Below, piece by piece: positions 18,977-36,902 of a stretch of DNA of 64,000 nt (positions are counted from its first letter, which is position 1; every line of letters begins with the position of its first letter). The stretch is from Candidatus Poribacteria bacterium. GTDB taxonomy: Bacteria; Poribacteria; WGA-4E; WGA-3G. The stretch is taken from assembly GCA_965215265.1 (NCBI GenBank), contig OZ244048.1, forward strand, positions 3,712,001 to 3,776,000. The letters run 5' to 3'. Position numbers and translations under genes: made by a program. Under the pieces are notes generated by a model. The model worked only from the letters and a program-made list of their open reading frames with translations. It ran no database searches and was not told the DNA's origin.

Positions 18977-19072
18977 GACAAGATACGGGTTGGCCCAGCA
19001 CAAAACCGAGAAACACTTTTATGAAAACGGAACCCTCCGCTCACTCGACCAGGGCGTTCGGTGCGTGCGGTC

Positions 19073-19318: not shown

Positions 19319-20137
19319 AGGTGCTACCTCCATGTCACGCGTATGCCGGGCTACCAGCTCTATCAACTCTTCTTGTTCTTCCTTTGAACGCCGATGCACA
19401 ATCAGCGATACCAGATACATTATCGCTTCCCTACGCTGCCCTGAATCTGCCGCATCAAGTGTCTCCAACTGCGTCAAAGTCTCCACTAAGGCACGGCTTA
19501 TAGACGCTTTGTCCGAATCTTTTTGTTGAAGCACTCTCATCAGCCACCCGAACGGATGCGCCGCCTCTGTCAGCGTCGCCTTGTCTGTGCCTTTCAGATT
19601 CAGAAATAGGATGTCAAATCTCGGAACGAATCGAGAGAGCGCCGCAGGCAGATTCATCAGCGCCTCAAGTGTCAGTGGCTTTTCCCACCGCCGCTCCCCC
19701 GTGTAAAACACCACGGGCAGAATCGGCGGCAATACACGCTCTCCTCTCGGCACCTTCTCTGCCGCCCACCGCCGCCGCTCTGCGTCCCAAATCAGCATCA
19801 TGTAGAAAAGCACACGAAACCCCATCGTCGCATCTACCGTTGATTGGTGTTCAATCAGCAGATAGATAAGCAGCTCTGCCGCACCCTCATCACCATTACT
19901 TTTGAAGGGCACCCGATATACAATGTCTGCCTCTTGTTCTCGGAGCGTCGCAGGCAGCAGGCTCCTATTGATTGGAACCAGATGCTCAAAGTCAATCAGT
20001 TCGGCGAGTTCTGCCGCAACGATTTCTAACAAGCCCCGGACGTTTTCCCTGTTTTCTAATAAGCGGCGTATGCTCCGATCGGAAAAGTTCGAAACAGACA
20101 TCTCGGACAAAAAGTCGTGGATGTCCCTCTTCTGCAT
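19073..20137 (-). CDS. Rpn/YhgA-like recombination-promoting nuclease (PD-(D/E)XK)
   Basis: 'EQEADIVYRV...IYLLIEHQS', 'LPPILPVVFYTGE..W' and a C-terminal 'ERGIAQGIEQG' coiled repeat. AGGAG RBS. Confidence 0.92.
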   Translation of the reverse strand: MQKRDIHDFLSEMSVSNFSDRSIRRLLENRENVRGLLEIVAAELAELIDFEHLVPINRSLLPATLREQEADIVYRVPFKSNGDEGAAELLIYLLIEHQSTVDATMGFRVLFYMMLIWDAERRRWAAEKVPRGERVLPPILPVVFYTGERRWEKPLTLEALMNLPAALSRFVPRFDILFLNLKGTDKATLTEAAHPFGWLMRVLQQKDSDKASISRALVETLTQLETLDAADSGQRREAIMYLVSLIVHRRSKEEQEELIELVARHTRDMEVAPMAETMAEFLFERGIAQGIEQGACQNAIKNITAVLNARFPGCDIETATQQLETLSNLEHLEQLLLTAVKTDSFQAFLQALEL

Positions 20138-20198
20138 ATTAGACTCCTAAAACGCCACAGGGGGCAAGTGCTTTCCTTCTTAAAACGGCTACGTCTTT

Positions 20199-20227
20199 AT
20201 AATAACACATCAGGGAATCATTGTCAA
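20199..20227 (-). promoter_or_regulatory. Sigma70-type promoter for rpn gene
   Basis: Minus strand reads TTGACA-17 nt-TATTAT. Confidence 0.7.
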
Positions 20228-20261
20228 GCAAAGAGAGACAAATCAGGCGGAGAAAAAAGAG

Positions 20262-20344
20262 AAAGAGGTGTGATAGCATTCGGCACACGGCCTACTCACC
20301 ATCACACCTCTGCTTTTATCTTTCGCTGCACATAAAACGAGCCG
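20262..20344. repeat. 83-bp direct repeat, copy 2 (upstream of rpn promoter)
   Basis: Near-identical to 18894-18976. On the minus strand the hairpin is followed by a T-rich tract (TTTCTCTTTTTT). Confidence 0.95.
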
Positions 20345-20415
20345 CACAAAATGCGGTTTGACTTGATACAAAAACGCACCGGTTACAGCAAGAACCAACC
20401 AAAAAATGAGCACAT

Positions 20416-20475
20416 TATTAACATATAGTTAATATTTTACCCTATTTCTAACACTTTTTTAACTTATAGTTAATA
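20416..20475. promoter_or_regulatory. Tandem dyad protein-binding sites TTAAC-N5-GTTAA
   Basis: TTAACATATAGTTAA at 20418-20432 and TTAACTTATAGTTAA at 20459-20473, 41 bp apart. Confidence 0.55.
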
Positions 20476-20528
20476 AATTATGGCGACACGATATGCACGC
20501 AGATCGGAAGGGGTAAAGGAGTAAAGAT

Positions 20529-21572
20529 TTAAGGAGTAACAGCCCTCACACACCGGAACCCGGCGCCGTAGCTGCCCGCGGCCGTTGGTATACCCCCGAA
20601 GCGATTAGCGGCGCGCAGGAGCCGCGTATTACCGAACCAGGTACTGCCGCGCAACACGCGATATGACCAAACATCTGTATAGTTATCTACAATCTCATCC
20701 ACATTCGCTATCGTTCCGCCACTCACCCCACTCAACGGATTCCGAGATGGAGAATTAGCATAGAAATTCGCATCCCACTCATCAAGACACCACTCCGACA
20801 CGTTGCCTGCCATGTCATATAGCCCATACCCGTTCGCAGCATAACTCCCCACAGCCGTTGTATCGTTTACATTCCTATCGTAGTTCGCGTTCGCAGGGGA
20901 TATCGTATTTCCCCACGGATACTTCCGTCCTGCCTCCCCACCGCGGGCCGCTTTCTCCCACTCCGCCTCCGTTGGAAGACGCTTCCCTGCCCACGCAGCA
21001 TACGCCATCGCACCATACCACGACACACGTGTCACGGGATGGTCCCCCTTACCCACTGGATAGTTATTACCTTCCCAATGCCATAGGTAACTACCTATGT
21101 GGAAGGCATCCGGAATCCGCGTCTTCTGCCACTCGGGATTCGCCAGCACAAAACTTTTATACTCGGCGTTCGTCACTTCGTGCGTGTCCATATAGAACGC
21201 GTCCACATGCACTGTATGCACAGGTTGTTCGTTATCCCACGCATCAGCATCCTCACTGCCCATCTGGAACTCGCCCGCGGGGATGAGCACCATCCCTGCA
21301 GGTGGCGGCACGGCTTTGCCCAGGTGCCCCGCTACCAAGATTAGATCGAGGATATTCACAATACCATCACCGTTTACATCAGGAGTCGGCCCCTCAGCGG
21401 TAACCGCAACCTCCCCAAAATGAGACGCAACCCCAGCCAAATCAAGCACATTTATGACTCCATCGCCATTGAAATCGAAAGCCTTTAGCGTCTCAAAATC
21501 CGAGGCTTTGATAGAAACACACAACACCGCGACAAGCAACAAGCTCAGAATCGGTACACCTTTTTTATTCAT
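20529..21572 (-). CDS. Secreted dockerin-like plus FGE-sulfatase (SUMF1/CLec-fold) domain protein; candidate DGR target
   Basis: Signal peptide and two 'D.NGDG..N.LDL' EF-hand repeats. FGE motifs 'MVLIPAGEFQMG', 'HEVTNAEY', 'RLPTEAEWEKAARG', 'YGLYDMAGNVSEW', 'GFRC'. ATG 21572 follows AAGGAG. Confidence 0.9.
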   Translation of the reverse strand: MNKKGVPILSLLLVAVLCVSIKASDFETLKAFDFNGDGVINVLDLAGVASHFGEVAVTAEGPTPDVNGDGIVNILDLILVAGHLGKAVPPPAGMVLIPAGEFQMGSEDADAWDNEQPVHTVHVDAFYMDTHEVTNAEYKSFVLANPEWQKTRIPDAFHIGSYLWHWEGNNYPVGKGDHPVTRVSWYGAMAYAAWAGKRLPTEAEWEKAARGGEAGRKYPWGNTISPANANYDRNVNDTTAVGSYAANGYGLYDMAGNVSEWCLDEWDANFYANSPSRNPLSGVSGGTIANVDEIVDNYTDVWSYRVLRGSTWFGNTRLLRAANRFGGIPTAAGSYGAGFRCVRAVTP

Positions 21573-21662
21573 TGTAAAGAACTCCTTATTTTTCAAGTGA
21601 ATCTATTTGTTCGTTTTTTGACGTGCCGGGGAGCGGGGCACGCTGCACCGCCCTTTCCGGCC

Positions 21663-22271
21663 TTACTTCCTAATCAACATCTTCTGCGTGGCGGAGAAGT
21701 CGCCCGCGCGCAGCGTATAGAAATAGATACCACTCGCAACACGCTCACCAGAGGCGTTGCGCCCATCCCAATACGCGGCGCGTGCCTTGCTCTCGTAGCG
21801 GCCCGCCGCTTGAGGCCCTAACGCTAACGTCCTAACCAAATGCCCGTCCAACGCATAGATGGACACCTCCACATCCGCTGACACTGCCAACTGATAAGGT
21901 ATCCACGTCTCTGGGTTGAACGGATTCGGATAGTTCGCTAACAGCCGTGGCCGCGCCACGGGCTGCATCTCGGTTAGCACCTGCTCAAGGTTCGCTATCC
22001 CCTTTGCAAAAACCGCGGAGCCGTCATTGTTGGCACGTAACAGCGACAACCACTCTGCAACCGTTTCGTGAGAAACCGAGTCAGCGGACACGGCAGGCAA
22101 GCTACGGTCTATGCCTGCCTGCCCGTTAACCGGCGGGGCGATGTGCCGCGTCTCTGAGTGAACCGGCATCAAGCCGCGTTGCGCTCTTACCAGCCCGTAG
22201 CAGGCAAACACTAACACCAGCCCCCCTAACAAAACCACGATGCCTTTTTTCGGGTTCATCCAATCTTTCAT
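21663..22271 (-). CDS. Secreted protein made almost entirely of the FlgD-Ig/T9SS-type-A-like C-terminal domain
   Basis: Signal peptide, then 'TVAEWL...GIANLEQVL...LLANYPNPFNPETWIPYQL...YWDGRN..GE.VASGIYFYTL.AGDFSATQKMLIRK'. Homologous to the C-terminus of 57905-60361. Confidence 0.85.
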   Translation of the reverse strand: MKDWMNPKKGIVVLLGGLVLVFACYGLVRAQRGLMPVHSETRHIAPPVNGQAGIDRSLPAVSADSVSHETVAEWLSLLRANNDGSAVFAKGIANLEQVLTEMQPVARPRLLANYPNPFNPETWIPYQLAVSADVEVSIYALDGHLVRTLALGPQAAGRYESKARAAYWDGRNASGERVASGIYFYTLRAGDFSATQKMLIRK

Positions 22272-22506
22272 TTCAAAAATCCTTTCGGACGATGACGTAC
22301 AGTATCTATGCCATTATGGCAACGGTCAAGTTTATCAGAAAACAACGTTTTTTGTCTGACTCAAAGGTTAGTTGGCATTATTGCACAATGAACGTTTTTT
22401 GGCAACTCTTTTTTCCGAATTAAAAAAGAGACGAATACATTCTAGCAGAAAACAATACTTTTTGTCAAACTTTTTTCTCACATCCGGATTATCATCAAAA
22501 AACCTT

Positions 22507-24498
22507 TTAGAATTTGCCAAAAACCCGCACGAAGAGCTCCATGAAATTCTGATCATTCACTTCACCTATTGCACGCTGATCGATGTATCGGGCACCGATG
22601 TGCAGAAAGAGTTGCTTGCGGTATGCGACAAAACTCTTTTCCATCTCCGCCAATAGGGCCTGCCGTACAAAATCGTTATCGTCATGAATCATGTCGTTAA
22701 AGAGCAGAATCTGTCCGCCGCCGGTAAGTTTGATGGTTTTTGTGAATTGATAGACGACTTTGAGGATGAGTGCGGGTGTCATATCGCGTACATCCGCCTG
22801 TTCGATTTTGCGGAGTCGTAGGCGGCGGGTAAGGAGCATCCCCTCGATTTCCTCTTTCAAGACGAGGTCTTCAAGCCGGTCCTCAGCCATCCGGAATCCA
22901 TTTCGGACGGTGTATTTGAACATAGGACTGATTTCGAGTGATTTGGAAGGTCTCAGTCGATAGAGCATTTTGAAAATTCCGACTTCGTAATGTTGATTGT
23001 GATTGTCGAAATCGATATTATATTGAAGTTTCGCACGGGCGGTTGTAACGAGCCGGTCGATGCCTAGGTATTCCCAGGTAATTTTCGCGGTGTTAATGAG
23101 GTCGTTCTGCATGAGAAGCGGGTCTCTGCGTCGTCTTTCTACTTCAGTTCCTCCGTCAACGTTGAAGAACTGCAAATCGCCGTTTGCCTCTAATTCGGTG
23201 ACTTCTGGCTGTGCACGATAGAGTCGCTCCTCTGCTTTGCTTAGGAATCCTGCATAATACCATGTTTCATCAGGGATTCGGTCTTTTACGAGTTTGAGTT
23301 CGTTTTCAAAGACGAGTGAAGAGGCGCGTGCGAGTTGTCTCTGGTAAATGAGATTGGCGAAGGCTTTGGTTGAAGAGGGTGTATTTCTGAGTCTGAGGTT
23401 TTTTTCGAGTTGCAGTCCGAGGTCCCAATCAACGATGCTTCCTTGAAGTTTCTGTTTACGGTTCATGAAGAGGCGTATGCCTTGGAGTCCGACATTGAAT
23501 TCGTAATTAGGTTCTTTATCGTTTTCTTCCTCGTCGCGGATTCCGTTGTTGTTGGGGTCGCTTTCATCAAGGAAGTCTTCATCGACATCAAAAAGCAGAA
23601 TATCGTCCTCATAATCAAAGGTTCCATTGTTGTTCTTATCCAGATCGCCTGGGATGATGAGTGAAGGCGGGTCAAGTGGGGTGTTGTCGGTGTACCGGTC
23701 TTGGTCATCATTATCGCCAACCGATCGAGATGCATCAAACCGGGGTCCGACGCGAAAGGCTTCTGCCTGAAAGATCGTGTCTCCGACGGTTTGAAACGCT
23801 TTAAGTACGGTTGTCGTTGCGTCGAAGCGGGAACGGAGTTTTTTTTGTAAGGCGGTTTTGGGTGTGATAGCGACCTCGGCTTTTATGCCGTAGTTTGTGA
23901 AGTTGGTTTCCATATCCACTGCCCAGACGGGTATTTCGCGGAAGTACCAGGAGAGCCCGAGCTGCGATTTGCCAAATTTAGTGACTTCCCGCAGTCCGAT
24001 GCCAGAGCCTTCTGTAGTCTGCTCTTGGCCGTTCAGTCTATTGAGTAGTCCGGGCACCATTAAGATCGTCCAATCCGTGTGTTCGGAGCGGACTTCCCAT
24101 CGCACACCGGAGAGGTCTATCTGATCGAAGGTGAATTTGGTGAAAGTTGTGGGGACTTCCCCGAGGCTCAGGATGTTCTTGACACTGCCTGCGGTCTCCT
24201 CGATCACCATAACGCTGTGGAAGCCGCGCCGGAAGAGCCTATCGAAATCGAAGCTGTCCTGTCGGACCTGTTCTTCTTCAGTATCAGCGAGGAAGTTTCG
24301 CCTATTTGTGAAATCGTATTCAACACGTCCCGACAAAAATAATTTCCCAAATAAGCTGTAGACATCCTCGGCTTCAGCACGGAGAGCAGAGGAAATTAGG
24401 TAAAGAATGATGAGGTAAGCTATGAGTTTTCGGACATTTGCAGGCTGGAGTAGCGCTTTTATGCAGGCAAAGTCCCAGTTTCTATAAGAAACTTTCAA
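22507..24498 (-). CDS. Hypothetical outer-membrane beta-barrel-like protein with Asp-rich Ca-binding-like loops
   Basis: Hydrophobic signal-like N-terminus, 'DLDKNNNGTFD' and 'DPNNNGIRD' loops, amphipathic strands, and C-terminal 'FVRVFGKF' ending in Phe. The TTG start overlaps the upstream stop; the start is uncertain. Confidence 0.7.
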   Translation of the reverse strand: MKVSYRNWDFACIKALLQPANVRKLIAYLIILYLISSALRAEAEDVYSLFGKLFLSGRVEYDFTNRRNFLADTEEEQVRQDSFDFDRLFRRGFHSVMVIEETAGSVKNILSLGEVPTTFTKFTFDQIDLSGVRWEVRSEHTDWTILMVPGLLNRLNGQEQTTEGSGIGLREVTKFGKSQLGLSWYFREIPVWAVDMETNFTNYGIKAEVAITPKTALQKKLRSRFDATTTVLKAFQTVGDTIFQAEAFRVGPRFDASRSVGDNDDQDRYTDNTPLDPPSLIIPGDLDKNNNGTFDYEDDILLFDVDEDFLDESDPNNNGIRDEEENDKEPNYEFNVGLQGIRLFMNRKQKLQGSIVDWDLGLQLEKNLRLRNTPSSTKAFANLIYQRQLARASSLVFENELKLVKDRIPDETWYYAGFLSKAEERLYRAQPEVTELEANGDLQFFNVDGGTEVERRRRDPLLMQNDLINTAKITWEYLGIDRLVTTARAKLQYNIDFDNHNQHYEVGIFKMLYRLRPSKSLEISPMFKYTVRNGFRMAEDRLEDLVLKEEIEGMLLTRRLRLRKIEQADVRDMTPALILKVVYQFTKTIKLTGGGQILLFNDMIHDDNDFVRQALLAEMEKSFVAYRKQLFLHIGARYIDQRAIGEVNDQNFMELFVRVFGKF

Positions 24499-27400
24499 AA
24501 AATATCCTCCGATCCGTAGGATTCAGTGAAGGTGGTCCAGAGTTCTGTACGTTTATCAAGCCTGCTGAGGCCCCGATAGGTGCCGAACCAGACGTAAGTT
24601 CTGCCAATAGCCATAGAAAGGATCCCGTTATGGGTTAAGCCATCTTTTCGGGTGTAAGTTGTCCAACGATTTGTGAGTCGATCGAACCGGCTGATTCCTG
24701 CATTGTATGTCCCGATCCATACGTTTGTGCCATCGACACCGATAGTGGTGACTTTATTGCTAGCGAGGCCATCTTCATCGGTGTAAGATGTCCAATTGTC
24801 GATTTTTTCATTGTATACAGTAACGCCTCGGTCGCTGCCAAACCAGACGCGATTCCCGTCGATAGCGATACAAGTGACCTCGTTGCTTGCCAACCCATCT
24901 GCTGCAGTAATTGTGCGCCAGGTATCTCGTCCAATATCGTAACGACTGACTCCTCGGCGGGTGCCGATCCATACATGTTTTTTGCTTGTAGCAATGCACC
25001 AAATTTCGTCTGTAACCAATGACTCTGCGAATTCCTTTGAGACGGCGGATGGCTGGATTTCGGTGCCGGAGGTATAAGCAATCCAAGCGTTGAGGTCATC
25101 AGCTGTCCGCGGGTATTTGCCGATGCCGGAGGTAGTTCCTACCCAGATGTTATGACCGTCGTTGCTGACAGCCGTCACATTGTTTGCAGGTAATCCGTGT
25201 TCGGTTTTGTACTGATCCCAACGCAGCGCGAGTTTATCAAAGCGATTTGCACCGTCGCGGGTGCCGATCCAGACGTATTGTTCATCAACGACAATGGAGC
25301 TGATAGCGTTATCGGAGAGTGTATCACGAGATTTAGGACGGTGGCGGTGCCAATGCCCCCCGTGCGTCTCTATTGCTTCCGACCCGCCCTTTTGCTGGTA
25401 ATTCTTCCATGTTCCGAGGGATTTATCATAGCGAGACATGCCATTATCTGTACCGACCCATACAAACCGTTCGTCTGTATCTACCGTCCGGATTGTATTA
25501 TCAGCAAGGGTTGGCAAGGCGGTGTAAGCAGCCCATGATTCCTTCTGTTTATCATAACGTGAGAGCCCGCGTAACGTTCCGACCCAGACGTAGTCCTTAT
25601 CGACAGCGAGTCCGTATTCATTGGCGTGGTTATGGAGTAAGCCGTTGCGATCACGAAACGATGTCCAGGTGCCTGATGCGAAATGGAATCTACGCAAACC
25701 TTCATTAGGCGTAGCCAACCAGAGGTAATCTTCATCTGTAGCGAGTTCGGTAGTGCCGTTGCCAGACTTAATCGTGGTCCACTCCTGTGTGCGCTTATCG
25801 TATCGGGTGACTCCTGCATTATCCCAGGGTCTGTAGAGTATCCAAATTGCCTCCTTTGTAGAGATGATTTGTCTGACGGTAGCGGCGGCCAGGACATCAT
25901 TGGTTGAAAATGTGGTCCATTTTTTTGTTTTTTTGTTGTAGCGTGATAGTGGTCGATTGCTATCTCTATCCCATTCAGAGCGTGCGACCCAGATAAAATC
26001 GTCATCGACAGTAATCCATTCTGCGCCTCTTCCGGCCAACCCGTCGCGTGGTGTGAAAAGTCCCCATTCGCCTGTGGTTTCATTGTAACGGTGAAGTCCG
26101 CGCCCTGAACCGAACCATACTTCTGGGCCGTCAACCCCAAGCGCATTCACCCGTTCAATTTCCTCTCTCTTTTCTTGTACGATGACCTTCCATGTGCCGT
26201 CCGCTTTATTGTAACGGTTCAATTCCATTCCTATTATTGGAATGACCCAGACGCTGTGTTTGCTGACAGCAATCTTATCGACATCGTTGGTAGAGAGTCC
26301 ATCTTCGCGCGTAAAATGTTCCCAGGTATCCGCTGCTTTATCGTAACGAAGTACCCCCAAGTCCGTGGTGAACCAGACAGCGTCGGTATCTATATAAATC
26401 CAACGAATTAAAGTCATCGTTTTTTTCTGCGTTGACTTAAGAATATCCATTCGGGTAAAACGCTGCCAGGTTTCGGTCGGACGGTGGAACCGTAAAATAC
26501 ATCCATTGGGGGAAGAGTGCCAGTTATTGAACCAAACGTAGTCTCCGTCAAATTTAATATTAGAGAGTGTGATTTCACGAAGCGGTGTCCGTTCGGGCCG
26601 TGATTGATGCAGCACCGGTTCGCTATTGGGAGTACGATACTCAACAAGTCCGGCAGATGTTGCTAACCAAAGGGTGCGGTCTGTATCGATCAAGATGTCC
26701 CGGATGTTGAAAGAGATGTTTGGGAGAGCTTTCCAAGAGCTGGAAGTAAGCGAGTAGCTGCCAAGTCCACGTGGTGTGCCTATCCAGAGGATATCTTCTT
26801 GGCTGTTAGCAGGATCCGCTGGCTGAAAAGCGAGGGCAGTGACATTGGTGAAGGGTAATTGTTTATTAAACGCCATCGGTTCCCAGCGCTGTTGTGTGTT
26901 GTCATATCGTGCGACACCGTTGCGCGTTCCTGCCCACAACGTGGTACCAGTAGAAAGGAGGACATTCACATACGGATGGGGCAGTCCCTCGGATGCGTTC
27001 TTTAATTTCTTCTCGGCGATGGTGTAATGCAAAATACCTGTCGCGCCGCCGAACCAGACACTTCCGTCGCAGGAAAGCACGGTGGAGATAAATGGAGCTG
27101 TAGAGGTATTCTTCGCTTGCGTTTTAGCACGGAGTGAGATGCATTTTTGAGAGGCCGGGTCATACTTAGCGGGGCCTGAATTCGTCCCGAGCCAGATGAC
27201 ATCAGCATCCTCATCGGTATCGAGTGCTGTCACAAAGGCATCTCTTTGTGCGAGTGTTGACTGGGGTGCATAAAAGGTCCAGTCGCCGCCTGAATATGCA
27301 CGTGAGCCAAGTCCTCGGTCCGTAGCGATCCAGATCTGCGGCTCCTTCATCTGACTCGCTTGACTCGTTGATTTTTTTTGGGTTGATTCGGTTGCTTTCG

Positions 27401-28697
27401 TCTGAACGTCTATGGACATAATGTATGATGTGGGGAGCCCGTCTTCTTTGGAGATGACTTCCCACTTTTGGGTTTGTGGTGTGTAGATAGAGACACCGGA
27501 TGCGGTAGCGATCCAAAGGTTTCCATCTGCGTCGCGTGAGATGTGACGGACATCGTTATCTGCGAGAAAATCGGCTTGTTTGTACTGCGTCCACTCGCCA
27601 CTCACTTTATCAAACCGGCTGACACCGTCTTCTTTGCTGCCGAACCAGACATCATTGCCTTGTGTAGTAATCCAAGAGACATGATTACTTGACAGTCCAT
27701 CAGTTTTCGTATAGTGAACCCAAGTATTGACAGGCTTAATAAAACGGTGAACGCCTGCGTTCGCCGTGCCGAACCAGACCTGGAATCCGTCTGCGTGAAT
27801 AGATGTGATGATATTACTTTTGAGTAGATCGGTTTTGGTGAAGGTTTTGATAAAGGTTTGGTCGACTTGATTATATTGACTGACACCCTCCTTTTTAGTG
27901 CCGAACCAAACGCTATCTTCGTCAACGGCAATGGTGGCAATTTGTGTGTCTATGAGTCCATCTGATTTAGTATAGTTATTCCATGAATCGGTATCGCGAT
28001 GGTAGCGACTCACACCGCCTTTGCTAAATCTGGGGTCTTCGTCCCAGCCATACGGATCCGGATTTATTTCTTTATCGGTTCCGACCCATACGTACTCTGG
28101 TTCGACAGCAATTGTCGTAATGACTTTACTGACTAACCCATCTTTCCGGGTTCGGACTGCCCAACTGTCAATTGTTTTGTCATAACGGTTGAGTCCGTTA
28201 GACGTTCCGAACCAGACGTAGTTTCCGTCTACAGCGATTGAGGAGACCATGTCACTTGCAAGTCCATCAATACTACGGAAAGTGGCAAAGGTGCTGTTCT
28301 GCATATCATAGCGGCTTACGCCTTCATCTGTAGCGAACCAAATCCAATCTCCGTCGATTGCGACAGCATTCACAGCATCGTTCGCGAGTCCATCTTCCAT
28401 AGTGTAGTGCGTCCACTGATCTAGTTCACGCTGCCAGCGCGAAACGCCGGCTTCAGTAGCAAACCAGACATTATAGGAGTCGGCAGCAATACAGTTGACT
28501 TCGTTACTGACGAGGGTCTGCTCAACCTTCCATGTTTTTTCTGCACGAGAATCTGAGGGAAAATCCTGCAGCGAGATATCAGACGGGATGTCGGGTGTCA
28601 ATGTCGTACAACCCGCCATCATAAAGAGTAACGGCACTAGTAAAAGTTTGCCAACCAACATTGGAACGAAGTCGGTTATCCTTGCCTGTTTGTCCAT
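24495..28697 (-). CDS. Giant beta-propeller repeat lipoprotein (two-component-regulator-propeller-like repeats, no kinase domain)
   Basis: Lipobox 'MMAGC'. About 30 repeats of the form 'W..YT..DGL..N.V..IAVDG..VWFGT..GVSRYD'. ATG 28697 follows AGGAGAGGT. Confidence 0.85.
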   Translation of the reverse strand: MDKQARITDFVPMLVGKLLLVPLLFMMAGCTTLTPDIPSDISLQDFPSDSRAEKTWKVEQTLVSNEVNCIAADSYNVWFATEAGVSRWQRELDQWTHYTMEDGLANDAVNAVAIDGDWIWFATDEGVSRYDMQNSTFATFRSIDGLASDMVSSIAVDGNYVWFGTSNGLNRYDKTIDSWAVRTRKDGLVSKVITTIAVEPEYVWVGTDKEINPDPYGWDEDPRFSKGGVSRYHRDTDSWNNYTKSDGLIDTQIATIAVDEDSVWFGTKKEGVSQYNQVDQTFIKTFTKTDLLKSNIITSIHADGFQVWFGTANAGVHRFIKPVNTWVHYTKTDGLSSNHVSWITTQGNDVWFGSKEDGVSRFDKVSGEWTQYKQADFLADNDVRHISRDADGNLWIATASGVSIYTPQTQKWEVISKEDGLPTSYIMSIDVQTKATESTQKKSTSQASQMKEPQIWIATDRGLGSRAYSGGDWTFYAPQSTLAQRDAFVTALDTDEDADVIWLGTNSGPAKYDPASQKCISLRAKTQAKNTSTAPFISTVLSCDGSVWFGGATGILHYTIAEKKLKNASEGLPHPYVNVLLSTGTTLWAGTRNGVARYDNTQQRWEPMAFNKQLPFTNVTALAFQPADPANSQEDILWIGTPRGLGSYSLTSSSWKALPNISFNIRDILIDTDRTLWLATSAGLVEYRTPNSEPVLHQSRPERTPLREITLSNIKFDGDYVWFNNWHSSPNGCILRFHRPTETWQRFTRMDILKSTQKKTMTLIRWIYIDTDAVWFTTDLGVLRYDKAADTWEHFTREDGLSTNDVDKIAVSKHSVWVIPIIGMELNRYNKADGTWKVIVQEKREEIERVNALGVDGPEVWFGSGRGLHRYNETTGEWGLFTPRDGLAGRGAEWITVDDDFIWVARSEWDRDSNRPLSRYNKKTKKWTTFSTNDVLAAATVRQIISTKEAIWILYRPWDNAGVTRYDKRTQEWTTIKSGNGTTELATDEDYLWLATPNEGLRRFHFASGTWTSFRDRNGLLHNHANEYGLAVDKDYVWVGTLRGLSRYDKQKESWAAYTALPTLADNTIRTVDTDERFVWVGTDNGMSRYDKSLGTWKNYQQKGGSEAIETHGGHWHRHRPKSRDTLSDNAISSIVVDEQYVWIGTRDGANRFDKLALRWDQYKTEHGLPANNVTAVSNDGHNIWVGTTSGIGKYPRTADDLNAWIAYTSGTEIQPSAVSKEFAESLVTDEIWCIATSKKHVWIGTRRGVSRYDIGRDTWRTITAADGLASNEVTCIAIDGNRVWFGSDRGVTVYNEKIDNWTSYTDEDGLASNKVTTIGVDGTNVWIGTYNAGISRFDRLTNRWTTYTRKDGLTHNGILSMAIGRTYVWFGTYRGLSRLDKRTELWTTFTESYGSEDIF

Positions 28698-29178
28698 TTC
28701 TACCTCTCCTTTTTGCAACCTATGTTACTTTGGCGGCTTCAAGTTTGTGACGAAATTTCTCCCACTCAAAGAGCCACGACGTATCCAATCGTATCAAATC
28801 ATCGCTCACCTGTCTGAAGCAGAAATTCTCCTAAGCAGAATCAACTGCACCCGTGCACTATGCTATGTATTGGTTGATCTGCTAGTTTTCCTCCTATTTA
28901 CTTCAAAATCAGGATTCGCGCGCTATTTCAAAAATATGTTTAAGAATGCTACTACATTTTACATCAAATATCAATGCTTTTTTCAAAAAAACGTTTCGGT
29001 TTTCTCATCAGTGTGTATGAAAATACAAAAGAAGTGCGACTGATGTTTCCTGACTATACTCAGATTTTTTCTATCTTGTGAACATTAATGTCTAAAAAAT
29101 GAACTGTAAGAAAGCAGACCGTTAGACAAGCTCGGTGAGAAATCCTATTTTGGCCGGGGTTTCGCCCTTGAACGGTAT

Positions 29179-29195
29179 TTGGCATAAAAATTGCA
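29179..29195 (+). promoter_or_regulatory. Sigma54 promoter (distal)
   Basis: TTGGCATAAAAATTGCA with GG at 29181-82 and GC at 29193-94. An upstream TGTCTAAAAAATGAAC near 29089 resembles the site at 13509. Confidence 0.65.
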
Positions 29196-29469
29196 CTTTT
29201 ATCTAGATAATATCATAAAGACGAAGCAGAGAATGAGGAAGGTAGTGCTTCTGGGAAACGCAGAATAGTGGTACAGAAGCTCGCCTGAACAAGATGCAAT
29301 TCACAGAGCGCTCTTCTGATAAGAGAAAAAAAAGCCGCTAGTCGCCATAATAGGGGAATAGGTCAAGCCTCGCTACAGACAATGCCCGCCCCAGACAGGT
29401 TTCGCTATGCCCACAAAGGAAACAGCCAAAAATTGCATGCCAAATAGGTTTTCTTCGGCATCACGCCGC

Positions 29470-29516
29470 TGCCCTATTTTGTGCAATTAGATTTAAGGTA
29501 TGCCCTATTTTGTGCA
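29470..29516 (+). promoter_or_regulatory. Tandem enhancer-binding-protein sites
   Basis: The identical 16-mer TGCCCTATTTTGTGCA (TGC-N10-GCA dyad) occurs at 29470-29485 and 29501-29516, 31 bp apart (about 3 helical turns), just upstream of a sigma54 promoter. Confidence 0.7.
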
Positions 29517-29567
29517 GCGCTTTTTGACCATTTAGCTAAGAATCGCACCCGCGTCGCATTGTTCGGA

Positions 29568-29584
29568 TTGGCACGTAATTTGCT
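29568..29584 (+). promoter_or_regulatory. Sigma54 promoter (proximal) for the 1117-aa gene
   Basis: TTGGCACGTAATTTGCT, a near-perfect TGGCAC-N5-TTGC match. Confidence 0.85.
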
Positions 29585-29721
29585 CATTTCTACGATAACC
29601 GAATCTATGTTAGATAATGGTTGCTGCTACGCTTGTCTAGAAGGAGATTAGCAATTCTATTCAGAGATTGTACAAACTTGAACAGCTTCAGTTAATTCAT
29701 CCGTAAGGAGGATACAAACGA

Positions 29722-32700
29722 ATGAATAAGTTAAAACAATCGATTAATTTTCTGCTTGTAGTGGCTTGCGTTCTGAGTGTCCCTGTTTTCTATGGTTGTG
29801 GTGCGGAAAGTCTTGGGCCGTATGAACCGCTTTTGCCTGCCATTGAGGGTGAAACTAAGTTTTCAGCCAGATACCAATTAGAAGAGGAACCGGAATTCTT
29901 CTATGATCTGTATGGTAAAAAAATCGTGGAAGGCAGCGAACTCAATACATACGTTAATCAGAAAGAATTTGATAAGAACGGTAAATTAATTGCTGGCTGG
30001 TCGGGTCAGCTTGATAGTCTTAGATTCACTGCTCAGCTGGATCGGACTATCTTGACTGAAGAAACCTTTCTAGGCAGACATACAGAATTTATTATTGGAG
30101 ATCATCTACGATTCAAACCTGCTTCGCTGTTTCCGAACCGATATATTATATTCAAAAGTGAGTTTGATGGGCTTCGGTGGGATATCTCTTTTGCACAGGA
30201 GCATCATCTTTTTACGTTCATCCACTCACATATTTCCAATTCTATTAGAATAACAGATGATCCACAACAACAAAGACTCGGACAGGATCTTGGGCGGCGA
30301 AACGGTTTGAACGCGTTGTCAGGTGTCAGGAACATTGAAAACGCACGTCTCGTTGGTTTTCGGGGCCAGGGGCTTTTAGGTGAATTTTTGCGGGTTGGAT
30401 TTACTTATCTAAATTTGTATAAAGAACATCCGGAACGTCTAATAAACTCCTTCATGGGGAGCGTTGCCAATACTCCGCCTGAAAGAATATCGGTTGTTTT
30501 TCGTGATGACTCGCCTGAGGATAATCACACGAGTGCATTCACAGATTTTGATTCTTATGAGCCCGGCTTACATAGCGATAATATACAAGATGGTGTGGGT
30601 GCAGCTTTCAAAAGCATGAAGATTACAATTGTTACACAAGAACTTGAAGAATTAACCCGTGCGGATATAGAGGGCGGGCTTGAACCCGACCTCCTGCCTA
30701 AAATGACTCACCAATTCTATGTTTTCGCTGCAGATCTTGTTCCGGTGGATCATGCCGGCGGCTCTTCCGAGGTACGTGATTCCGTTGATGGGAAGTGGAA
30801 GATCGTCACCGGTTTTAATAAAATGAAATATGATCTGATTCTGGCTGATGGGAAGATTAACATTGACCCGCGCACCGTCAAATCGGTTACATTTGAGATG
30901 GTTGTTGCGGGCGATTATAATATCGCGGTTATCGGCTTTAGTGAAGCAAATAAAGCCGAGGTAAATCCTGAGCTACAAGAGTGGATTAAAACTAAAGATG
31001 GGCGCATTCAGATGCCGTATCGCGACATAATTGAGGCACCGGGGAATTATGGGCAATCTCCGGATTACATCAAAAATAGGAAAAAACTGGTAGACAATCC
31101 CACGCAATGGACAGGTGAAGGGAGGCCTCGCAAAATCCGGTACCGCTATGGTGCTGCACGTGCTGCGACTCTCTACGGACTTGACCTTGAAGGGCGCGTG
31201 GGCAATGTTTTCATCAGGACACACTACTCTATTAACGGTAAATACAAACAGTATCCGACGGTCCCGAAAGATAAAGTAGGATTTAGTCGAACCAAAACCA
31301 CTATTCAGACTCGCGACGGTGAGGAACCAACAGGTGTCTCTATTGATATTAGGAGCGGCCTGCCAGTAGATGCAAATGGTGTCCCCACATATTCGGAAAC
31401 CGAGGGCGAACGTTTTGAGGCATTTTTAGGCGGTGATGGGACAGATGAAGATGGCAACGGAAAGCTCGGTAGAGAAACAGCCTGGTTCGTCCAACTTAAG
31501 TCTCGATTTAGCAAACTTCACTTAGAAGGAGTCTTGTATCATATCGACCCGGGCTACACAACCAACTACCTGGATTTTGGGGCGCATCCGAACCGCGGTC
31601 AAATTTACACGGCCGGACGGGGCCGCCCAGGTCGGCCTTTGGAAGAACAAATTGCAGAGGAATTGATTCCATGGGACGTAACTAATTATACATTGATTGA
31701 AGATGACGATGATGGCGACGACTGGCCGGATGGCATTGACTTTGATGGAGTAATTCCACTTGCTGATGACCGGGACCGGAATGGGATATTAGACTTCCAA
31801 GAAGATTTTCTTATTTTTGAAGCGGATCCGCCTGTATTTACTAACATTATCGATCTGAATAACAACGGTATTATTGATACGATTGAGGATGACTTTGAAC
31901 CAGAATACGAATACGGTATAGACCGTCAGGGTTATCACCTCAAAGCGAGATATGACGTGTTTGATAACCTTGCTGCTCAAGTCGGTTGGTTAAACGAAAG
32001 CGAAATTTCAAGCCGGCGGAAAAATAATTCTAAATACATACATGTCACCTATAAACGCAATATCCCGAATTTTGGCAGTTTTCAGTTCCAAAATAGATTT
32101 GTCCGAGTGCAGGATGATATTCCGGATTACGCACATGCCTTGCCTGTTGGAGAATTGGAGCCGATTCACATTAATGACGAACTTGATTTTTACAATGCCC
32201 GGTTGAATATAACAATTCTCCAATGCCTCTATACTGCAGTGCCCAACTTGACACTTGAAGCCAAATCCTCAGTTCTCATGCAAAAGCAGTTTGAACAGGA
32301 CGAAGGCAGGGCACTTTTCACGGATGTTGAATACGACGCCCTATCAAAGAATTTTGAATCCGATGAACGCGTTGACTTTATGGTACCAATTGAACAGGTC
32401 CGGATTTACGAAGGGAGACGTGTGTACCCGTTTTATCCAGATCATGGCATTCATGCACTTGATCCAACTGACACCGGTTTAATCTATGACGATGCGAATT
32501 GGAAAAAACGCCGTTACCCTGAACGGAACATCCGTCATCAGTTAACTATTCTGAAGGCGAAATACGAGATTCCACTTGGAGAGCTCCCAATTGTTAACAA
32601 AATCGTTGAAGATTTAACGGTAACCCCTATGGCTAAGTACGTCTGGGACCGCGCTTTTGACCGGAGTGCCGATGAAACCCCAAAAACACTGACACCAGAC

Positions 32701-33075
32701 CTGTTCCTCCCAACCGACGATCAGCCGGTTGAATATTTACGATTCAATCGTCGAAGTCGAGAGGATATCCTCGGTGTCCGTCTTGATTATCAATTTACAC
32801 AGAGATTAAATATACTTGGCGGCTTCCAATACCGGAAGTTTTCTAACCGGGATAAAAACTTCAAGAACTACCTACGAAGTTTCTCAACTAACATTAGCGT
32901 TCCAAACCTATACCGCCCTGACGTTCGAACTCGTATTTTTGAAATCCAAGCCATCAACAAAGGCGAATGGGTCGGCTTCTATATAGTCGTCCTTGCAGGT
33001 TACCGTAGAACCACGAATCTGTTTCAAAATAAGACGAGTCATACAACGTTTGTTCGAGCAATGGTGGGTTTCTAA
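29722..33075 (+). CDS. Large hypothetical outer-membrane barrel-like (lipo)protein with Asp-rich loops; paralog of 22507-24498
   Basis: AAGGAGG RBS and possible lipobox 'FYGC'. 'DDDDGDDWPD', 'DRDRNGILD' and 'DLNNNGIID' loops. C-terminal 'TFVRAMVGF' ends in Phe. Confidence 0.8.
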   Translation: MNKLKQSINFLLVVACVLSVPVFYGCGAESLGPYEPLLPAIEGETKFSARYQLEEEPEFFYDLYGKKIVEGSELNTYVNQKEFDKNGKLIAGWSGQLDSLRFTAQLDRTILTEETFLGRHTEFIIGDHLRFKPASLFPNRYIIFKSEFDGLRWDISFAQEHHLFTFIHSHISNSIRITDDPQQQRLGQDLGRRNGLNALSGVRNIENARLVGFRGQGLLGEFLRVGFTYLNLYKEHPERLINSFMGSVANTPPERISVVFRDDSPEDNHTSAFTDFDSYEPGLHSDNIQDGVGAAFKSMKITIVTQELEELTRADIEGGLEPDLLPKMTHQFYVFAADLVPVDHAGGSSEVRDSVDGKWKIVTGFNKMKYDLILADGKINIDPRTVKSVTFEMVVAGDYNIAVIGFSEANKAEVNPELQEWIKTKDGRIQMPYRDIIEAPGNYGQSPDYIKNRKKLVDNPTQWTGEGRPRKIRYRYGAARAATLYGLDLEGRVGNVFIRTHYSINGKYKQYPTVPKDKVGFSRTKTTIQTRDGEEPTGVSIDIRSGLPVDANGVPTYSETEGERFEAFLGGDGTDEDGNGKLGRETAWFVQLKSRFSKLHLEGVLYHIDPGYTTNYLDFGAHPNRGQIYTAGRGRPGRPLEEQIAEELIPWDVTNYTLIEDDDDGDDWPDGIDFDGVIPLADDRDRNGILDFQEDFLIFEADPPVFTNIIDLNNNGIIDTIEDDFEPEYEYGIDRQGYHLKARYDVFDNLAAQVGWLNESEISSRRKNNSKYIHVTYKRNIPNFGSFQFQNRFVRVQDDIPDYAHALPVGELEPIHINDELDFYNARLNITILQCLYTAVPNLTLEAKSSVLMQKQFEQDEGRALFTDVEYDALSKNFESDERVDFMVPIEQVRIYEGRRVYPFYPDHGIHALDPTDTGLIYDDANWKKRRYPERNIRHQLTILKAKYEIPLGELPIVNKIVEDLTVTPMAKYVWDRAFDRSADETPKTLTPDLFLPTDDQPVEYLRFNRRSREDILGVRLDYQFTQRLNILGGFQYRKFSNRDKNFKNYLRSFSTNISVPNLYRPDVRTRIFEIQAINKGEWVGFYIVVLAGYRRTTNLFQNKTSHTTFVRAMVGF

Positions 33076-33400
33076 ATATTCAAGTGTGGCCCGGAGATAA
33101 CTGAGCGAGAGGTATAGCAACTCAGCGAGTTGACGACTATTAGACCGCCATGTTAGACTGGTGAACCCATTGCTTCGGGAGCATAGCACCGGCGTGACGA
33201 TCGCGTTGAGATCTAAAAATATACTGAACTCTCCAATAGGACTTCCTTCCCCTTTTATAATGCGTCTTGCACATTTTCCATCTGCTCTCACAAAAGTATT
33301 GGATAATCTCGTTATGACTTTTATAGATACCGTCCCGAATTTGCCCATCGCTATAGATGAACCAGAACACAGGCATCGCAAGGCAAAGGCGTTTGAAGGA

Positions 33401-33464
33401 AGTGGCAGGATACCTATCCTGCCACTCTCCTGAAAGGACAGAGAAAGAAAACCTATCCTGCCAC
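33401..33464. repeat. Dispersed MITE/REP-like element, copy
   Basis: GTGGCAGGATA-CC-TATCCTGCCAC, CTCCTGAAAGGA and CCTATCCTGCCAC. The modules are shared with 37485, 46020 and 50855. Confidence 0.75.
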
Positions 33465-33612
33465 ATCAGCCGCTGATGGACTGAAATATACGAGAACACA
33501 AATCTCGTCGGAGCCTCCTTAGGTATAGCCTAAGGAATCTCTGATGAGATTTACACAGTAACTGACAAAACATAACCCTTGATAGGGCTGAAATAGACGA
33601 ATATACAAACAC

Positions 33613-33642
33613 TTGACTTTTTTCAACGTATTCGGGTATAAT
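33613..33642 (+). promoter_or_regulatory. Sigma70-type promoter, leaderless configuration
   Basis: TTGACT-18 nt-TATAAT ends 6 nt before ATG 33649. No SD sequence. Confidence 0.7.
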
Positions 33643-33648
33643 AACTTT

Positions 33649-34572
33649 ATGGCACAGGACTATGATAATATGGCAAAAGAGTTGTTGACGGAGCATGCCC
33701 ACGACATCTCACGGTTTATACTCGGGGTGGACAATGTTCAGGTGCTTGAAAACCTTGACACCGAACAACAGGTGGTTATCGGGCAGCGTGCGGATAGCAC
33801 CAAGCGTATCCGTATTGATAACGAAGAGGCTATCCTACACATAGAGTTACAGGTGCGAGATAGCACACCCAAACCGATGTGGGCGCGAAACGCAGCGTAT
33901 CACGGCTATCTGATTGGGGAATACCAGCTGCCGGTGTATTCGAATGTGCTGTACTTTCATCCGTCAGCGGGGCGAAGGGATGGGGGTGTGTATGAATATA
34001 GTATGTGTGGCTATGCCTATCGGTTGCGGTATAAGGTTATCCGTCTGATAGAAGTAGCAGGTGAATCTATTTTGGCGTTGGCTTTGCCTGGGCTGTTGCC
34101 GTTCACGCCGTTGATGAAACCGCCCGGGGGTTTGGACTCGGCGGCTTGGATTCAAAGATGTATAACCGCGACGACAGGTACGGATTTGGATGAGGGGGCG
34201 CAAGGGGATTTACTGTGTGCGCTGTCGGTTTTCGGGGGTGTTGTGCATGACGCGTCACTTTTCAAACGTCTGATACCGGAGGGACTAATGCGAGAATCGA
34301 AGTATTTCCAACTGTTACGCGATGAATTTATCGCACAAGGTATAGAACAAAGTATAGAACAAGGTATGGAACGAGGCATGGAACGAGGTGCGAAAGAGAC
34401 TACCATCAAAAATACATTGGCCGTGCTGAGCGCTAAGTTTTCACCAGATACTGTCAACGCCTTAGCTCCCGCCTTGCAACGCATTACCGATTTACAACAC
34501 CTTGAGCTGCTGCTGCTCACCGCCATTCAAGCGGAGAGCCTTGATACCTTCACGCAAAGTCTAAACCGATAG
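33649..34572 (+). CDS. Rpn-like PD-(D/E)XK nuclease / putative transposase family protein
   Basis: 'DYDNMAKELL', 'RADS...ILHIELQ', 'LPVYSNVLY', 'GLLPFTPLM' and C-terminal 'QGIEQSIEQGMERGMERG' repeats. Start placed at ATG 33649. Confidence 0.9.
   Translation: MAQDYDNMAKELLTEHAHDISRFILGVDNVQVLENLDTEQQVVIGQRADSTKRIRIDNEEAILHIELQVRDSTPKPMWARNAAYHGYLIGEYQLPVYSNVLYFHPSAGRRDGGVYEYSMCGYAYRLRYKVIRLIEVAGESILALALPGLLPFTPLMKPPGGLDSAAWIQRCITATTGTDLDEGAQGDLLCALSVFGGVVHDASLFKRLIPEGLMRESKYFQLLRDEFIAQGIEQSIEQGMERGMERGAKETTIKNTLAVLSAKFSPDTVNALAPALQRITDLQHLELLLLTAIQAESLDTFTQSLNR
34288..34572 (+). CDS. Putative in-frame internal small protein (RpnS-type antitoxin), 94 aa
   Basis: GGAGG at 34278-34282, a 5-nt spacer, then in-frame ATG 34288 (MRESKYFQLLRDEFIAQG). 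Confidence 0.6.
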   Translation: MRESKYFQLLRDEFIAQGIEQSIEQGMERGMERGAKETTIKNTLAVLSAKFSPDTVNALAPALQRITDLQHLELLLLTAIQAESLDTFTQSLNR

Positions 34573-34773
34573 GAACTTCACCTTGGTAAACACAAGGCAG
34601 ATATATGGCAAGGCTTAATAGCGAAATCATTATGCCAGCTTACCGCAAAACACGGGTTGAGGTCAATATCCTGCTGCCAATTATCAACGCGGCATCTGCA
34701 GCCGTCCGCGTGAATCCGTTCTTTTCAGGCAAATCCTGATGCTGACACGCTATAAAAAATGGGGGTAAGTAAG

Positions 34774-34947
34774 GGTAACTTTTTTGTTGAAGAGCGAGCT
34801 CGCTTCTGTTATGATAGTCGCAAACGGGTAAATTTCTTAGGAGATAAGCATGAAAATCTATCGTATTGCGATTATTGGCTTAGGCGGTATGGGAATGGAA
34901 CATGCCAGGGCAGTAGAATTGGACGCAGACTGTGAATTGGTTGCCGG
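34774..34947 (+). repeat. 174-bp direct repeat, copy 1 (promoter plus first 33 codons of the Gfo/Idh/MocA gene)
   Basis: Matches 37887-38060 with 2 substitutions. Contains TTGAAG-17-TATGAT, the palindrome AGCGAGCTCGCT, an RBS and an ATG. Confidence 0.97.
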
Positions 34948-34966
34948 AAAGGGAGCCATTGCATGA
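34850..34966 (+). pseudogene. Truncated duplicate of the 5' end of the 37963 oxidoreductase gene (38 codons)
   Basis: Reads MKIYRIAIIGLGGMGMEHARAVELDADCELVAG, then KGAIA and a stop. Confidence 0.9.
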
Positions 34967-35001
34967 TTTTTCGCTCATTCTAAGTAAGGAGGAGATTCGT
35001 T

Positions 35002-35640
35002 ATGTTTTTTAGGTTGAAGTGGCTTTGGATCTGTGCATTGTTTTGTGTTTGTGCGTTGATATTCTTAGGGGTTTTGCTTCACCCCTCAAATAGATCTCCA
35101 AAAGTGATAAAGGTGTATAAAGCAACGGTTGCTCCCCCGGTTGCTGTGCCGAAGTCCCCAGATGTTTCTTCTATGCAGGCGGAGTCTGTAGATGAGGCTG
35201 AACCTATGCCCGTGATGAGAGACTCGGGTGAGTGGGTAGATTTTACGGATGTAGATACGACAGCGGTGCAGCCCGCCGAGGTAGTGGTGCATTCCGATGA
35301 AAGCCCCGAGGGGGCTGTTACTGAAGTTGAAAGCGATCTAGTCGTAGGAGAGGAACGTTTTTTCGGTTTGACAGTTTCAGAGATTGAGGCGATGCTTCCT
35401 GTGCTTGAGTCAGAAATCCGCACGAATCTGACCCAAGCAGTGGGGCTCTATGCAGACCTGAGAGAAACGGATGGATTGGCGAGGACATCGCCTGAGATAG
35501 CCGCGTGGCGCGACGAGACGTGGAAAGAGATAAAGCAGCTCTTCTACGAAGCATCTCGTGAAAAAATACCGCGTTATGTCTCCTATTTGCTGGCGACAGG
35601 CGGAGAGAATCCGCTACGCGCGGGGGGGATGGCTTTCTGA
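35002..35640 (+). CDS. Hypothetical N-terminally anchored protein, possibly frameshifted near the 3' end
   Basis: AAGGAGGAG RBS, N-terminal TM helix, acidic low-complexity linker and helical C-terminus. A G7 run at 35622-35628 lies just before the stop. Confidence 0.7.
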   Translation: MFFRLKWLWICALFCVCALIFLGVLLHPSNRSPKVIKVYKATVAPPVAVPKSPDVSSMQAESVDEAEPMPVMRDSGEWVDFTDVDTTAVQPAEVVVHSDESPEGAVTEVESDLVVGEERFFGLTVSEIEAMLPVLESEIRTNLTQAVGLYADLRETDGLARTSPEIAAWRDETWKEIKQLFYEASREKIPRYVSYLLATGGENPLRAGGMAF

Positions 35641-36869: not shown

Positions 36870-36902
36870 AGTAGCCCGACATCGTAATGAAAGGAGCCTT
36901 CC

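Follow-up and report, generated by a model that had tools for sequence, protein, structure and literature searches.

A conserved gene pair of Poribacteria encodes a predicted very large acidic-loop outer-membrane barrel and a propeller lipoprotein

Complexes of an outer-membrane barrel with a lipoprotein are already a known kind, and glycans of the host matrix are considered the food of sponge symbionts such as Poribacteria; the outer-membrane biology of uncultured phyla is almost unknown. According to an excerpt of the report on the SlpA barrel (PMC9388160), its pore contains inserts held by Asp-coordinated metal sites, and the authors take these metal-bound inserts to suggest a scaffold, not a pore. 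An excerpt of the source on the Bacteroides sensor BT4663 (PMC5121618) describes disaccharide binding at the entry face of each of its propellers, as well as the same two-propeller architecture in PorZ, which in a part of a further report (PMC8545088) is a surface protein delivering anionic lipopolysaccharide (LPS) to PorU. Here we consider a window of 64,000 nucleotides (nt) of a Candidatus Poribacteria bacterium (assembly GCA_965215265.1, contig OZ244048.1, positions 3,712,001 to 3,776,000), for which a preliminary description had proposed that three adjacent genes form one novel envelope machine. All three open reading frames (ORFs) proved to be real: they encode a short acidic-loop barrel of 663 amino acids (aa) (22507..24498, minus strand), a propeller lipoprotein of 1407 aa (24495..28718, minus strand) and a long paralogous barrel of 1117 aa, predicted to be a lipoprotein itself (29722..33075, plus strand). 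We find that the conserved unit is a pair, the short barrel and the propeller lipoprotein, and that the two barrels belong to a family of their own.

The short barrel begins with a Sec signal peptide (..SSALRA followed by EAEDVYSLFGK). Its TTG start and the TGA of the propeller gene share 4 nt, an overlap that had been noticed earlier; no other start codon precedes the signal peptide, and a homolog with 89% identity starts at this point too. The AlphaFold2 model (61-sequence alignment; mean predicted local distance difference test score, pLDDT, 85.3; predicted template modelling score, pTM, 0.80) is almost all beta, with approximately 27 strand elements in its DSSP string, which probably correspond to 26-28 strands, and with a single long non-strand insert (residues 251-337, block pLDDT ~74-93). 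Foldseek comparison with the PDB at E up to 0.001 yielded 162 matches for the short barrel and 145 for the long one, SlpA (8ae1) being the top match of both (E 1e-8 and 5.7e-10, respectively). The same three Deinococcus SlpA entries head the two sets, MtrB comes next and LptD further down; all PDB matches listed with E up to 1e-4 are outer-membrane barrels, and structures of TonB-dependent transporters (TBDTs) appear as weak generic barrel matches only. The template modelling (TM) scores of these matches are low for both proteins (0.19-0.34), so the two are very large predicted barrels that have no close solved relative.

A C-terminal Phe, pointed out in the preliminary description, is present in both barrels of the window, in 24 of 24 Poribacteria-type short-barrel rows of the alignment (P0001 to P0244) and in the long-barrel rows (n = 17; one exception, P0210, has Y), and in the wider family the last residue is F or W in 35 of 61 rows; the signal peptide is conserved too. 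The signal peptide, the C-terminal aromatic residue and an all-beta chain whose closure was judged from the Foldseek matches, not from coordinates, together suggest an outer-membrane beta-barrel inserted by the beta-barrel assembly machinery. Both proteins are thus predicted to be barrels that match no characterised family, the outcome anticipated when structure prediction was proposed as a check.

In Pfam and NCBIfam scans of both barrels (E up to 0.1) we observed no family at all; specifically, there was no TonB plug, POTRA or autotransporter domain, as the preliminary description had stated, no TonB box or TonB_dep_Rec barrel, and none of the family signatures LptD/OstA, MtrB_PioB and DUF560 (Slam). 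A search of 1.84 billion cluster representatives returned 82 proteins at E up to 0.001, of which the full-length close relatives are Poribacteria-like, while approximately 50 distant ones (700-1150 aa) share mainly the acidic core; a search seeded with a distant relative returned 246 proteins, and where these are named, all are 'hypothetical protein'. Judging by source names and Atlas rows only, which concur, the distant relatives come from Latescibacterota, Zixibacteria, Gemmatimonadota (Gemmatimonadetes) and Myxococcota. A literature search found no description of such proteins, and the data support the acidic-loop barrels being an undescribed family of very large outer-membrane barrels. There are several family paralogs per genome (three on contig 5907301), a behaviour typical of uptake channels, and Poribacteria have two long-type subfamilies and one short type. 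A PDB sequence search with the family profile gave chance matches only (nanobodies, saporin; E 0.006-0.12), and DUF6029, the nearest named family in the Atlas (0.90, 0.89), was rejected, as no member matched DUF6029 in the Pfam scans.

The relation of this family to SlpA was considered separately. A precomputed PF21620 (SlpA_C) label is carried by 12 of 120 listed clusters, and in three scans distant relatives gave local SlpA_C matches (4 of 61, 6 of 43 and 9 of 12). On rescanning, these matches cover profile positions ~219-329 of 656 at 22-36 bits, with 1 of 12 above the 35-bit cut-off, and Pfam finds no SlpA_C match in the two barrels of the window. We take them to indicate that the link with SlpA-type barrels is remote or local rather than one of membership. 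Such a link, together with the rank of SlpA as the top structural match of both barrels and its authors' preference for a scaffold over a pore (as worded in the excerpt of PMC9388160), would suit the alternative that the short barrel is an abundant, metal-stabilised and largely plugged SlpA-like scaffold, coated by the propeller protein and not engaged in transport. We consider this unlikely, since neither an SLH domain nor a coiled coil is present to tether peptidoglycan, the SlpA_C matches are partial, rarely reach the cut-off and never involve the window proteins, and many paralogs per genome would suit specialised channels better.

The single insert of the short barrel (87 residues; coding region 23488..23748, minus strand) contains the acidic DxDxNG-type loops noted previously, and these are conserved across the 61 sequences. 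The invariant or near-invariant columns form three stretches, D262-N-D-D-x-D267, D287-x-N-x-N-G-x-x-D295 and D314-x-N-N-N-G-x-x-D322-x-x-E325-x-D327-x-x-P330-x-Y332, and two stretches of the insert resemble 12-residue DxNxNGxxDxx[ED] loops of the EF-hand/dockerin type, that is, putative Ca2+ sites. The aligned acidic loops of the long paralog comprise residues 655-735 (31684..31926, plus strand). In the DSSP string of the short barrel, the long loops, the acidic insert and a 31-residue hairpin all come after even-numbered strands, hence they would lie on one side of the barrel, by the usual rule the outside, and the acidic insert would be extracellular. Another motif, [DE]-x-Y-[DS]-x-x-G (residues 44-52 of P0001), follows the signal peptide and is kept superfamily-wide, with Y47 and G51 in at least 90% of the 61 sequences; it also occurs approximately 35 residues past the lipobox of the long paralog, and may form a first strand, a latch or a plug.

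The propeller protein carries a lipoprotein signal (..LLFMMAGC) with the lipobox MMAGC at Cys37, for which the consensus in relatives is GCG, and is predicted to be lipidated. Counting 25 strict [VIL]W[FVILA][GAT][TSG] motifs and approximately four degenerate ones, we arrive at ~29 Reg_prop blades, or about four propellers. Pfam assigns Reg_prop (E 6.8e-34) and PorZ_N_b_propeller (E 5.6e-11), and the five Pfam families found at E up to 0.1 include no kinase (HisKA/HATPase), receiver, Y_Y_Y or AraC domain and no type IX secretion C-terminal domain (CTD; Por_Secre_tail); the earlier picture of a lipoprotein with about 30 blades and no kinase output therefore holds. PDB sequence matches lead to the sensor domains of Bacteroides hybrid two-component systems (4a2l, the BT4663 sensor, E 8.4e-31; 3v9f; 3va6), and the NCBIfam model T9SS_PorZ, named after type IX secretion systems (T9SS), scores 88 bits versus a cut-off of 260 (E 5.1e-25). 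Among 64 propeller orthologs, the first propeller (~150-400) is best conserved within the close clade and the last one in the distant clade, whereas the second (residues 400-700) is the most variable part, as would be expected of a specificity region.

In Bacteroidota, a signal for surface export of lipoproteins lies after the lipobox, and none is recognisable at that place in the propeller protein. Since, in addition, the closest characterised Reg_prop domains are those of periplasmic sensors (part of PMC5121618), the propeller protein could be an inner-leaflet lipoprotein that binds oligosaccharides entering through a specific-porin barrel, or the two proteins could be merely co-expressed. 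Such an arrangement seems improbable to us: with the long loops and the acidic insert presumably gathered on one side, the barrel would offer little periplasmic surface to a partner, and PorZ, according to the same excerpt (PMC5121618), is a case of this module functioning on the cell surface.

To describe the gene neighbourhood, we built a profile from a 10-sequence alignment and took the best 80 of 445 confirmed stretches (78 titled Poribacteria and two titled 'uncultured bacterium'), each with 10-kb flanks. Of the 77 testable loci, those that extend 1500 nt or more upstream of the barrel gene, 72 have the propeller gene directly upstream and on the same strand. In L040 and L062 the pair is split only by a gene inserted exactly between its members, for a DUF559 endonuclease-like protein in the former (8503-8991, plus strand) and for an IS605 OrfB / Cas12f-like TnpB in the latter (8590-9618, minus strand). 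In the divergent clade (L063-L079) two tandem propeller genes precede the barrel gene (1250-5503 and 5376-9770 in L063); their products are ~33-37% identical to the window's protein, the barrel there being 70-76% identical. There is no third conserved partner across the 80 loci, the next commonest neighbour cluster, an amidohydrolase, being found in 29; the gene downstream of the barrel varies widely between loci, and BlaI/BlaR1-like, DUF1501/PSCyt2, fucosidase-like and Laminin_G_3 genes are clade-specific neighbours. Thus, the data support the short barrel and the propeller lipoprotein being a conserved gene pair, and the co-location in related genomes proposed earlier is confirmed for this pair and fails for the long barrel.

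We also modelled a complex of barrel residues 42-663 with lipoprotein residues 37-412, which include the lipid-proximal propeller. The median ipSAE interface score was 0.58 (runs 0.61, 0.58 and 0.53), versus 0.00 for the best of three controls, with contact agreement between runs of at least 51% and partner pLDDT of at least 72. In the calibration, 116 of 157 solved complexes and 2 of 215 mismatched pairs attained the mark; only 18 of the 157 solved complexes, but both mismatches, attained it with a score of 0.60 or under. As the synteny provides a strong prior, the prediction raises the odds of binding modestly, and the multimer test suggested in the preliminary description leaves physical binding of the two proteins weakly supported.

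Tight pairing with translational overlap and weakly supported binding would also be expected if the barrel exported the lipoprotein and/or held it on the surface, like PorQ-PorZ, Slam or MtrB-MtrC, so that the propeller array would be an adhesin, an LPS/glycan handler or a host-interaction surface and would not serve uptake. Both PorZ-type profile matches of the propeller protein agree with such display, as do the T9SS-type CTD protein encoded directly downstream in the window and a C25 peptidase with a CTD encoded near 10 of the 80 loci; moreover, PorZ itself is surface-located and hands anionic LPS to PorU (as stated in the part of PMC8545088 consulted). At the same time, the propeller protein has no CTD and falls far short of the T9SS_PorZ cut-off, and the C25 and CTD genes nearby are clade-specific and lie on the opposite strand. 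The barrels of PorQ and Slam are small, unlike the short barrel with its probable 26-28 strands. The paralog stands alone, as apparently do many members of the family, which suggests that the basic role needs no separate client. On balance, we regard display as possible but doubtful. The ten loci with the C25 protein (2093 aa; Peptidase_C25 with a propeptide, FlgD_ig and Por_Secre_tail, gingipain/PorU-like; e.g. L060, 15581-21862, minus strand) are of the divergent clade, and its gene is no more than 10 kb downstream of that for the barrel, in opposite orientation.

The short and the long barrel are genuine paralogs, colinear as previously claimed. BLASTP aligns them at E 1e-13 (52 of 172 residues identical) over the acidic region and the strands after it, and hhalign with Poribacteria-only profiles (23 and 16 sequences) gives 98.1% probability and E 8.8e-14 over 329 columns (query 251-594, template 677-1061), that is, from the acidic region almost to the C-terminus. 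All eight motif pairs listed in the preliminary description share columns in the 10-sequence alignment; taken alone, the two N-terminal pairs are weak (for YSLFGK/YDLYGK, BLAST gives E 0.36), and neither is within the hhalign match. The long barrel has the lipobox ..VFYGCGA, in which G25-C26-G27-A28 are invariant in 16 Poribacteria sequences, and with its signal peptide it is a predicted lipoprotein. Its AlphaFold2 model (pLDDT 68.7, pTM 0.68) consists of the strands of the short barrel plus extra beta domains inserted at ~255-620, and confidence is low at 619-653 and 864-930.

Of the 80 loci, only one (L004, 81% identity) has a true long-barrel homolog near the pair, the remaining apparent matches being cross-matches to the short barrel itself. 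Thus, the conserved unit comprises two genes, and the long paralog is separate from it.

The long paralog also appears to be regulated separately. The consensus of sigma-54 promoters has GG at -24 and GC at -12 with canonical spacing. The pattern TGGCAY-N5-TTGCW has three matches in the window versus 0.24 expected (0 of 100 shuffles reach three), and two of them are on the plus strand upstream of the 1117-aa gene, where sigma-54 signals had been reported before. The proximal element, TGGCACGTAATTTGCT (29569..29584, plus strand), is 138 nt before the ATG and conforms to the consensus, suggesting a sigma-54-type promoter; upstream of the homolog in L004 the pattern is likewise matched exactly (2676-2661, minus strand). 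Two exact 16-nt direct repeats, TGCCCTATTTTGTGCA (29470..29516, plus strand; copies at 29470 and 29501, 31 nt apart), are situated 53-99 nt upstream of this element and are candidate enhancer-binding-protein sites. No Sigma54_activat domain is found among the scanned window ORFs of 150 aa or more, and it could be encoded elsewhere. The distal element, TGGCATAAAAATTGCA (29180..29195, plus strand), is not directly followed by a gene; within the intergenic region only 38 nt around this element match L004, where the counterpart site precedes a Laminin_G_3 gene that the window lacks.

The divergent intergenic region (28719-29721) is unusually long (1 kb) and has no Rfam match; in L004 two extra genes, for the Laminin_G_3 protein and for a 140-aa ORF, fill the corresponding space. 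The third match to the sigma-54 pattern, TGGCATGTAAATTGCA (13623-13638, plus strand), is approximately 300 nt upstream of an ORF without a Pfam family (13945-14586, plus strand). The Rfam scan of 18000-38000 gave no matches, and consensus scans for sigma-70 promoters and terminators were uninformative (30 promoter-like sites versus 17.8 expected; 13 terminator-like sites versus 13.1 expected).

These observations bear on the three-gene machine of the preliminary description, with two barrels and one lid. The three genes are adjacent and divergent in the window and near each other in L004, and the locus tags OXD54_06200 and OXD54_06220 on one contig suggest a third case. Given the single locus in 80 with a long-barrel homolog within 10 kb, the synteny largely refutes such a machine; the promoter of the long barrel is of a separate type, and YhgA/Rpn-like genes flank the region on both sides. 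We therefore consider it very improbable that the three genes act as one system. A rearrangement at the flanking genes may have brought the long paralog beside the pair. The flanking YhgA/Rpn-like (Transposase_31) genes are at 19073-20137 (minus strand) and 33613-34572 (plus strand) and have a C-terminal domain in common (41% identity over 69 aa, E 1e-13); the block between them includes a sulfatase-maturase-like gene, the CTD protein gene, the barrel-propeller pair and the long paralog.

Our preferred reading, held with somewhat less than even confidence, is that the short barrel and a glycan-binding lipoprotein form a surface complex for capture or uptake, a function proposed by inference. 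The conserved unit is a two-gene cassette, in which the short barrel gene comes after that of the propeller lipoprotein. The acidic loops would bind Ca2+ and stiffen a loop that caps or partly fills a wide pore, similarly to SlpA; the lipoprotein would be held on the barrel via its conserved N-terminal, lipid-proximal propeller and act as an arm capturing host or environmental glycans, and the barrel would be both its membrane partner and the conduit. The pair would then be a TonB-independent functional analogue of SusCD, and the 1117-aa paralog, with its own lipid anchor and inserted beta domains, would work alone under sigma-54 control. A SusCD-like uptake role is plausible but inferred; of the 'novel machine' claimed earlier, the undescribed barrel family stands, whereas the term itself is too strong, the fold being nearest to SlpA.

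Several points weigh against this capture-or-uptake reading. In three loci (L010, L045 and L060) the 10 kb upstream of the barrel gene contain no propeller gene, so the barrel can occur unaccompanied by a neighbouring partner. The loci show no conserved context of carbohydrate-active enzymes (CAZymes) or of the polysaccharide utilization locus type; glycan-related genes recur nearby, not universally, such as the FGE-sulfatase gene with a dockerin here and fucosidase-like and Laminin_G_3 genes elsewhere. The ipSAE of the modelled complex lies in a band where passes are mostly wrong unless the pairing is likely beforehand, and the prediction covered the N-terminal 376 residues of the lipoprotein alone. 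The low TM-scores (at most 0.34) leave the pore size and plugging of the barrel putative, and both the number of strands and the side assigned to the acidic insert were read from the DSSP string. As to Ca2+, an EF-hand profile scan of the short barrel's insert gave no match, Pfam EF-hand_1 is seen weakly and in the paralog's acidic segment only (E 0.013, 15.5 bits versus a cut-off of 25.4), and a PDB sequence search with the insert alone gave one chance match (E 0.56). Finally, as the Reg_prop domains of the hybrid sensors are periplasmic, the lipoprotein could face the periplasm, and the transport, the ligand and the localisation proposed for the two proteins are putative.

A broader version of the capture-or-uptake reading would make the acidic-loop barrels of Poribacteria, Latescibacterota, Zixibacteria, Gemmatimonadota and relatives a widespread, undescribed class of large TonB-independent outer-membrane channels, gated or shaped by a Ca2+-bound insert, one of whose Poribacteria members recruited a lectin-like lipoprotein of four propellers to form a glycan capture-and-import complex, the counterpart of SusCD in phyla without it. 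We would give the whole of this proposal only a modest chance of being correct. Should the pairing prove real, it would be tractable for heterologous expression and cryo-electron microscopy; the barrel-propeller pair is a concrete candidate for capture or uptake of large substrates without SusCD, and it brings with it a new family of very large barrels whose metal-type loops are conserved.

Several neighbouring genes of the window deserve mention. Directly 3' of the short barrel gene (21663-22271, minus strand) is that of a 202-aa protein with FlgD_ig and a type IX secretion C-terminal sorting domain, followed by one for an FGE-sulfatase-family protein with an N-terminal dockerin type I domain (20529-21596, minus strand); this neighbourhood is not kept in other loci. 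A further dockerin-bearing ORF is at 63319-63933 (minus strand). A 746-aa DUF5916 protein (E 9.3e-29; 40297-42537, plus strand), an uncharacterised putative envelope protein, is encoded 7 kb from the long paralog. A carotenoid-type cluster (43287-51582, minus strand) has genes for phytoene synthase, two amine-oxidase-type desaturases, lycopene cyclase and Caroten_synth, and also for a fatty-acid-desaturase-like protein, a GT2 protein and an acyltransferase; carotenoid-like genes come after the barrel in L003-type loci, which indicates clade-level synteny. A 1022-aa Type ISP restriction-modification enzyme (coupler, N6_Mtase and C-terminal specificity domains) is encoded at 52376-55444 (minus strand).

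Among the described systems, LptD-LptE and MtrB-MtrA/C have 26-strand barrels of comparable size, provide the next-best structural matches and work with a partner lipoprotein. They differ in that their family signatures are not found here in Pfam and no haem protein is encoded nearby; with TM-scores of at most 0.34 the predicted likeness is generic only, and the propeller partner is presumably far too large to sit inside the barrel.

On the lipoprotein side, the hybrid two-component sensors of Bacteroides have homologous seven-bladed Reg_prop propellers. The Y_Y_Y, kinase, receiver and AraC outputs are theirs and are not in the 1407-aa protein, and both these sensors and PorZ have two propellers versus approximately four in the protein predicted to be lipid-anchored here. 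The score of the latter is below the PorZ equivalog level (88 versus 260 bits), and the CTD is a feature of PorZ, not of the 1407-aa protein.

SlpA is the best structural match of both barrels, and all are very large single-chain barrels with acidic inserts; as far as the excerpt on SlpA goes (PMC9388160), its metal-held pore inserts are the nearest structural precedent for the acidic insert. Vice versa, the SLH domain and coiled-coil stalk of the SlpA/OmpM-type tether are seen in neither barrel by Pfam or in the models, where beta strands begin immediately behind the signal peptide or lipobox. SlpA is a 30-stranded homotrimer, whereas the short barrel probably has 26-28 strands according to its DSSP string; the short barrel is paired with a lipoprotein gene, the TM-scores are 0.19-0.33, and neither barrel gives a full-length SlpA_C match above the gathering score (35 bits).

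SusD has a helical, TPR-like fold, versus the all-beta Reg_prop propellers that make up the lipoprotein throughout. The plug, TonB box and 22-strand TBDT barrel of SusC were not detected in the acidic-loop barrels; in the pair the lipoprotein gene comes first, and its neighbourhood has no conserved CAZyme genes. What the pair shares with SusC/SusD is the overall arrangement: a barrel gene beside that of a presumably ligand-binding lipoprotein built of glycan-binding-type modules, and many paralogs per genome.

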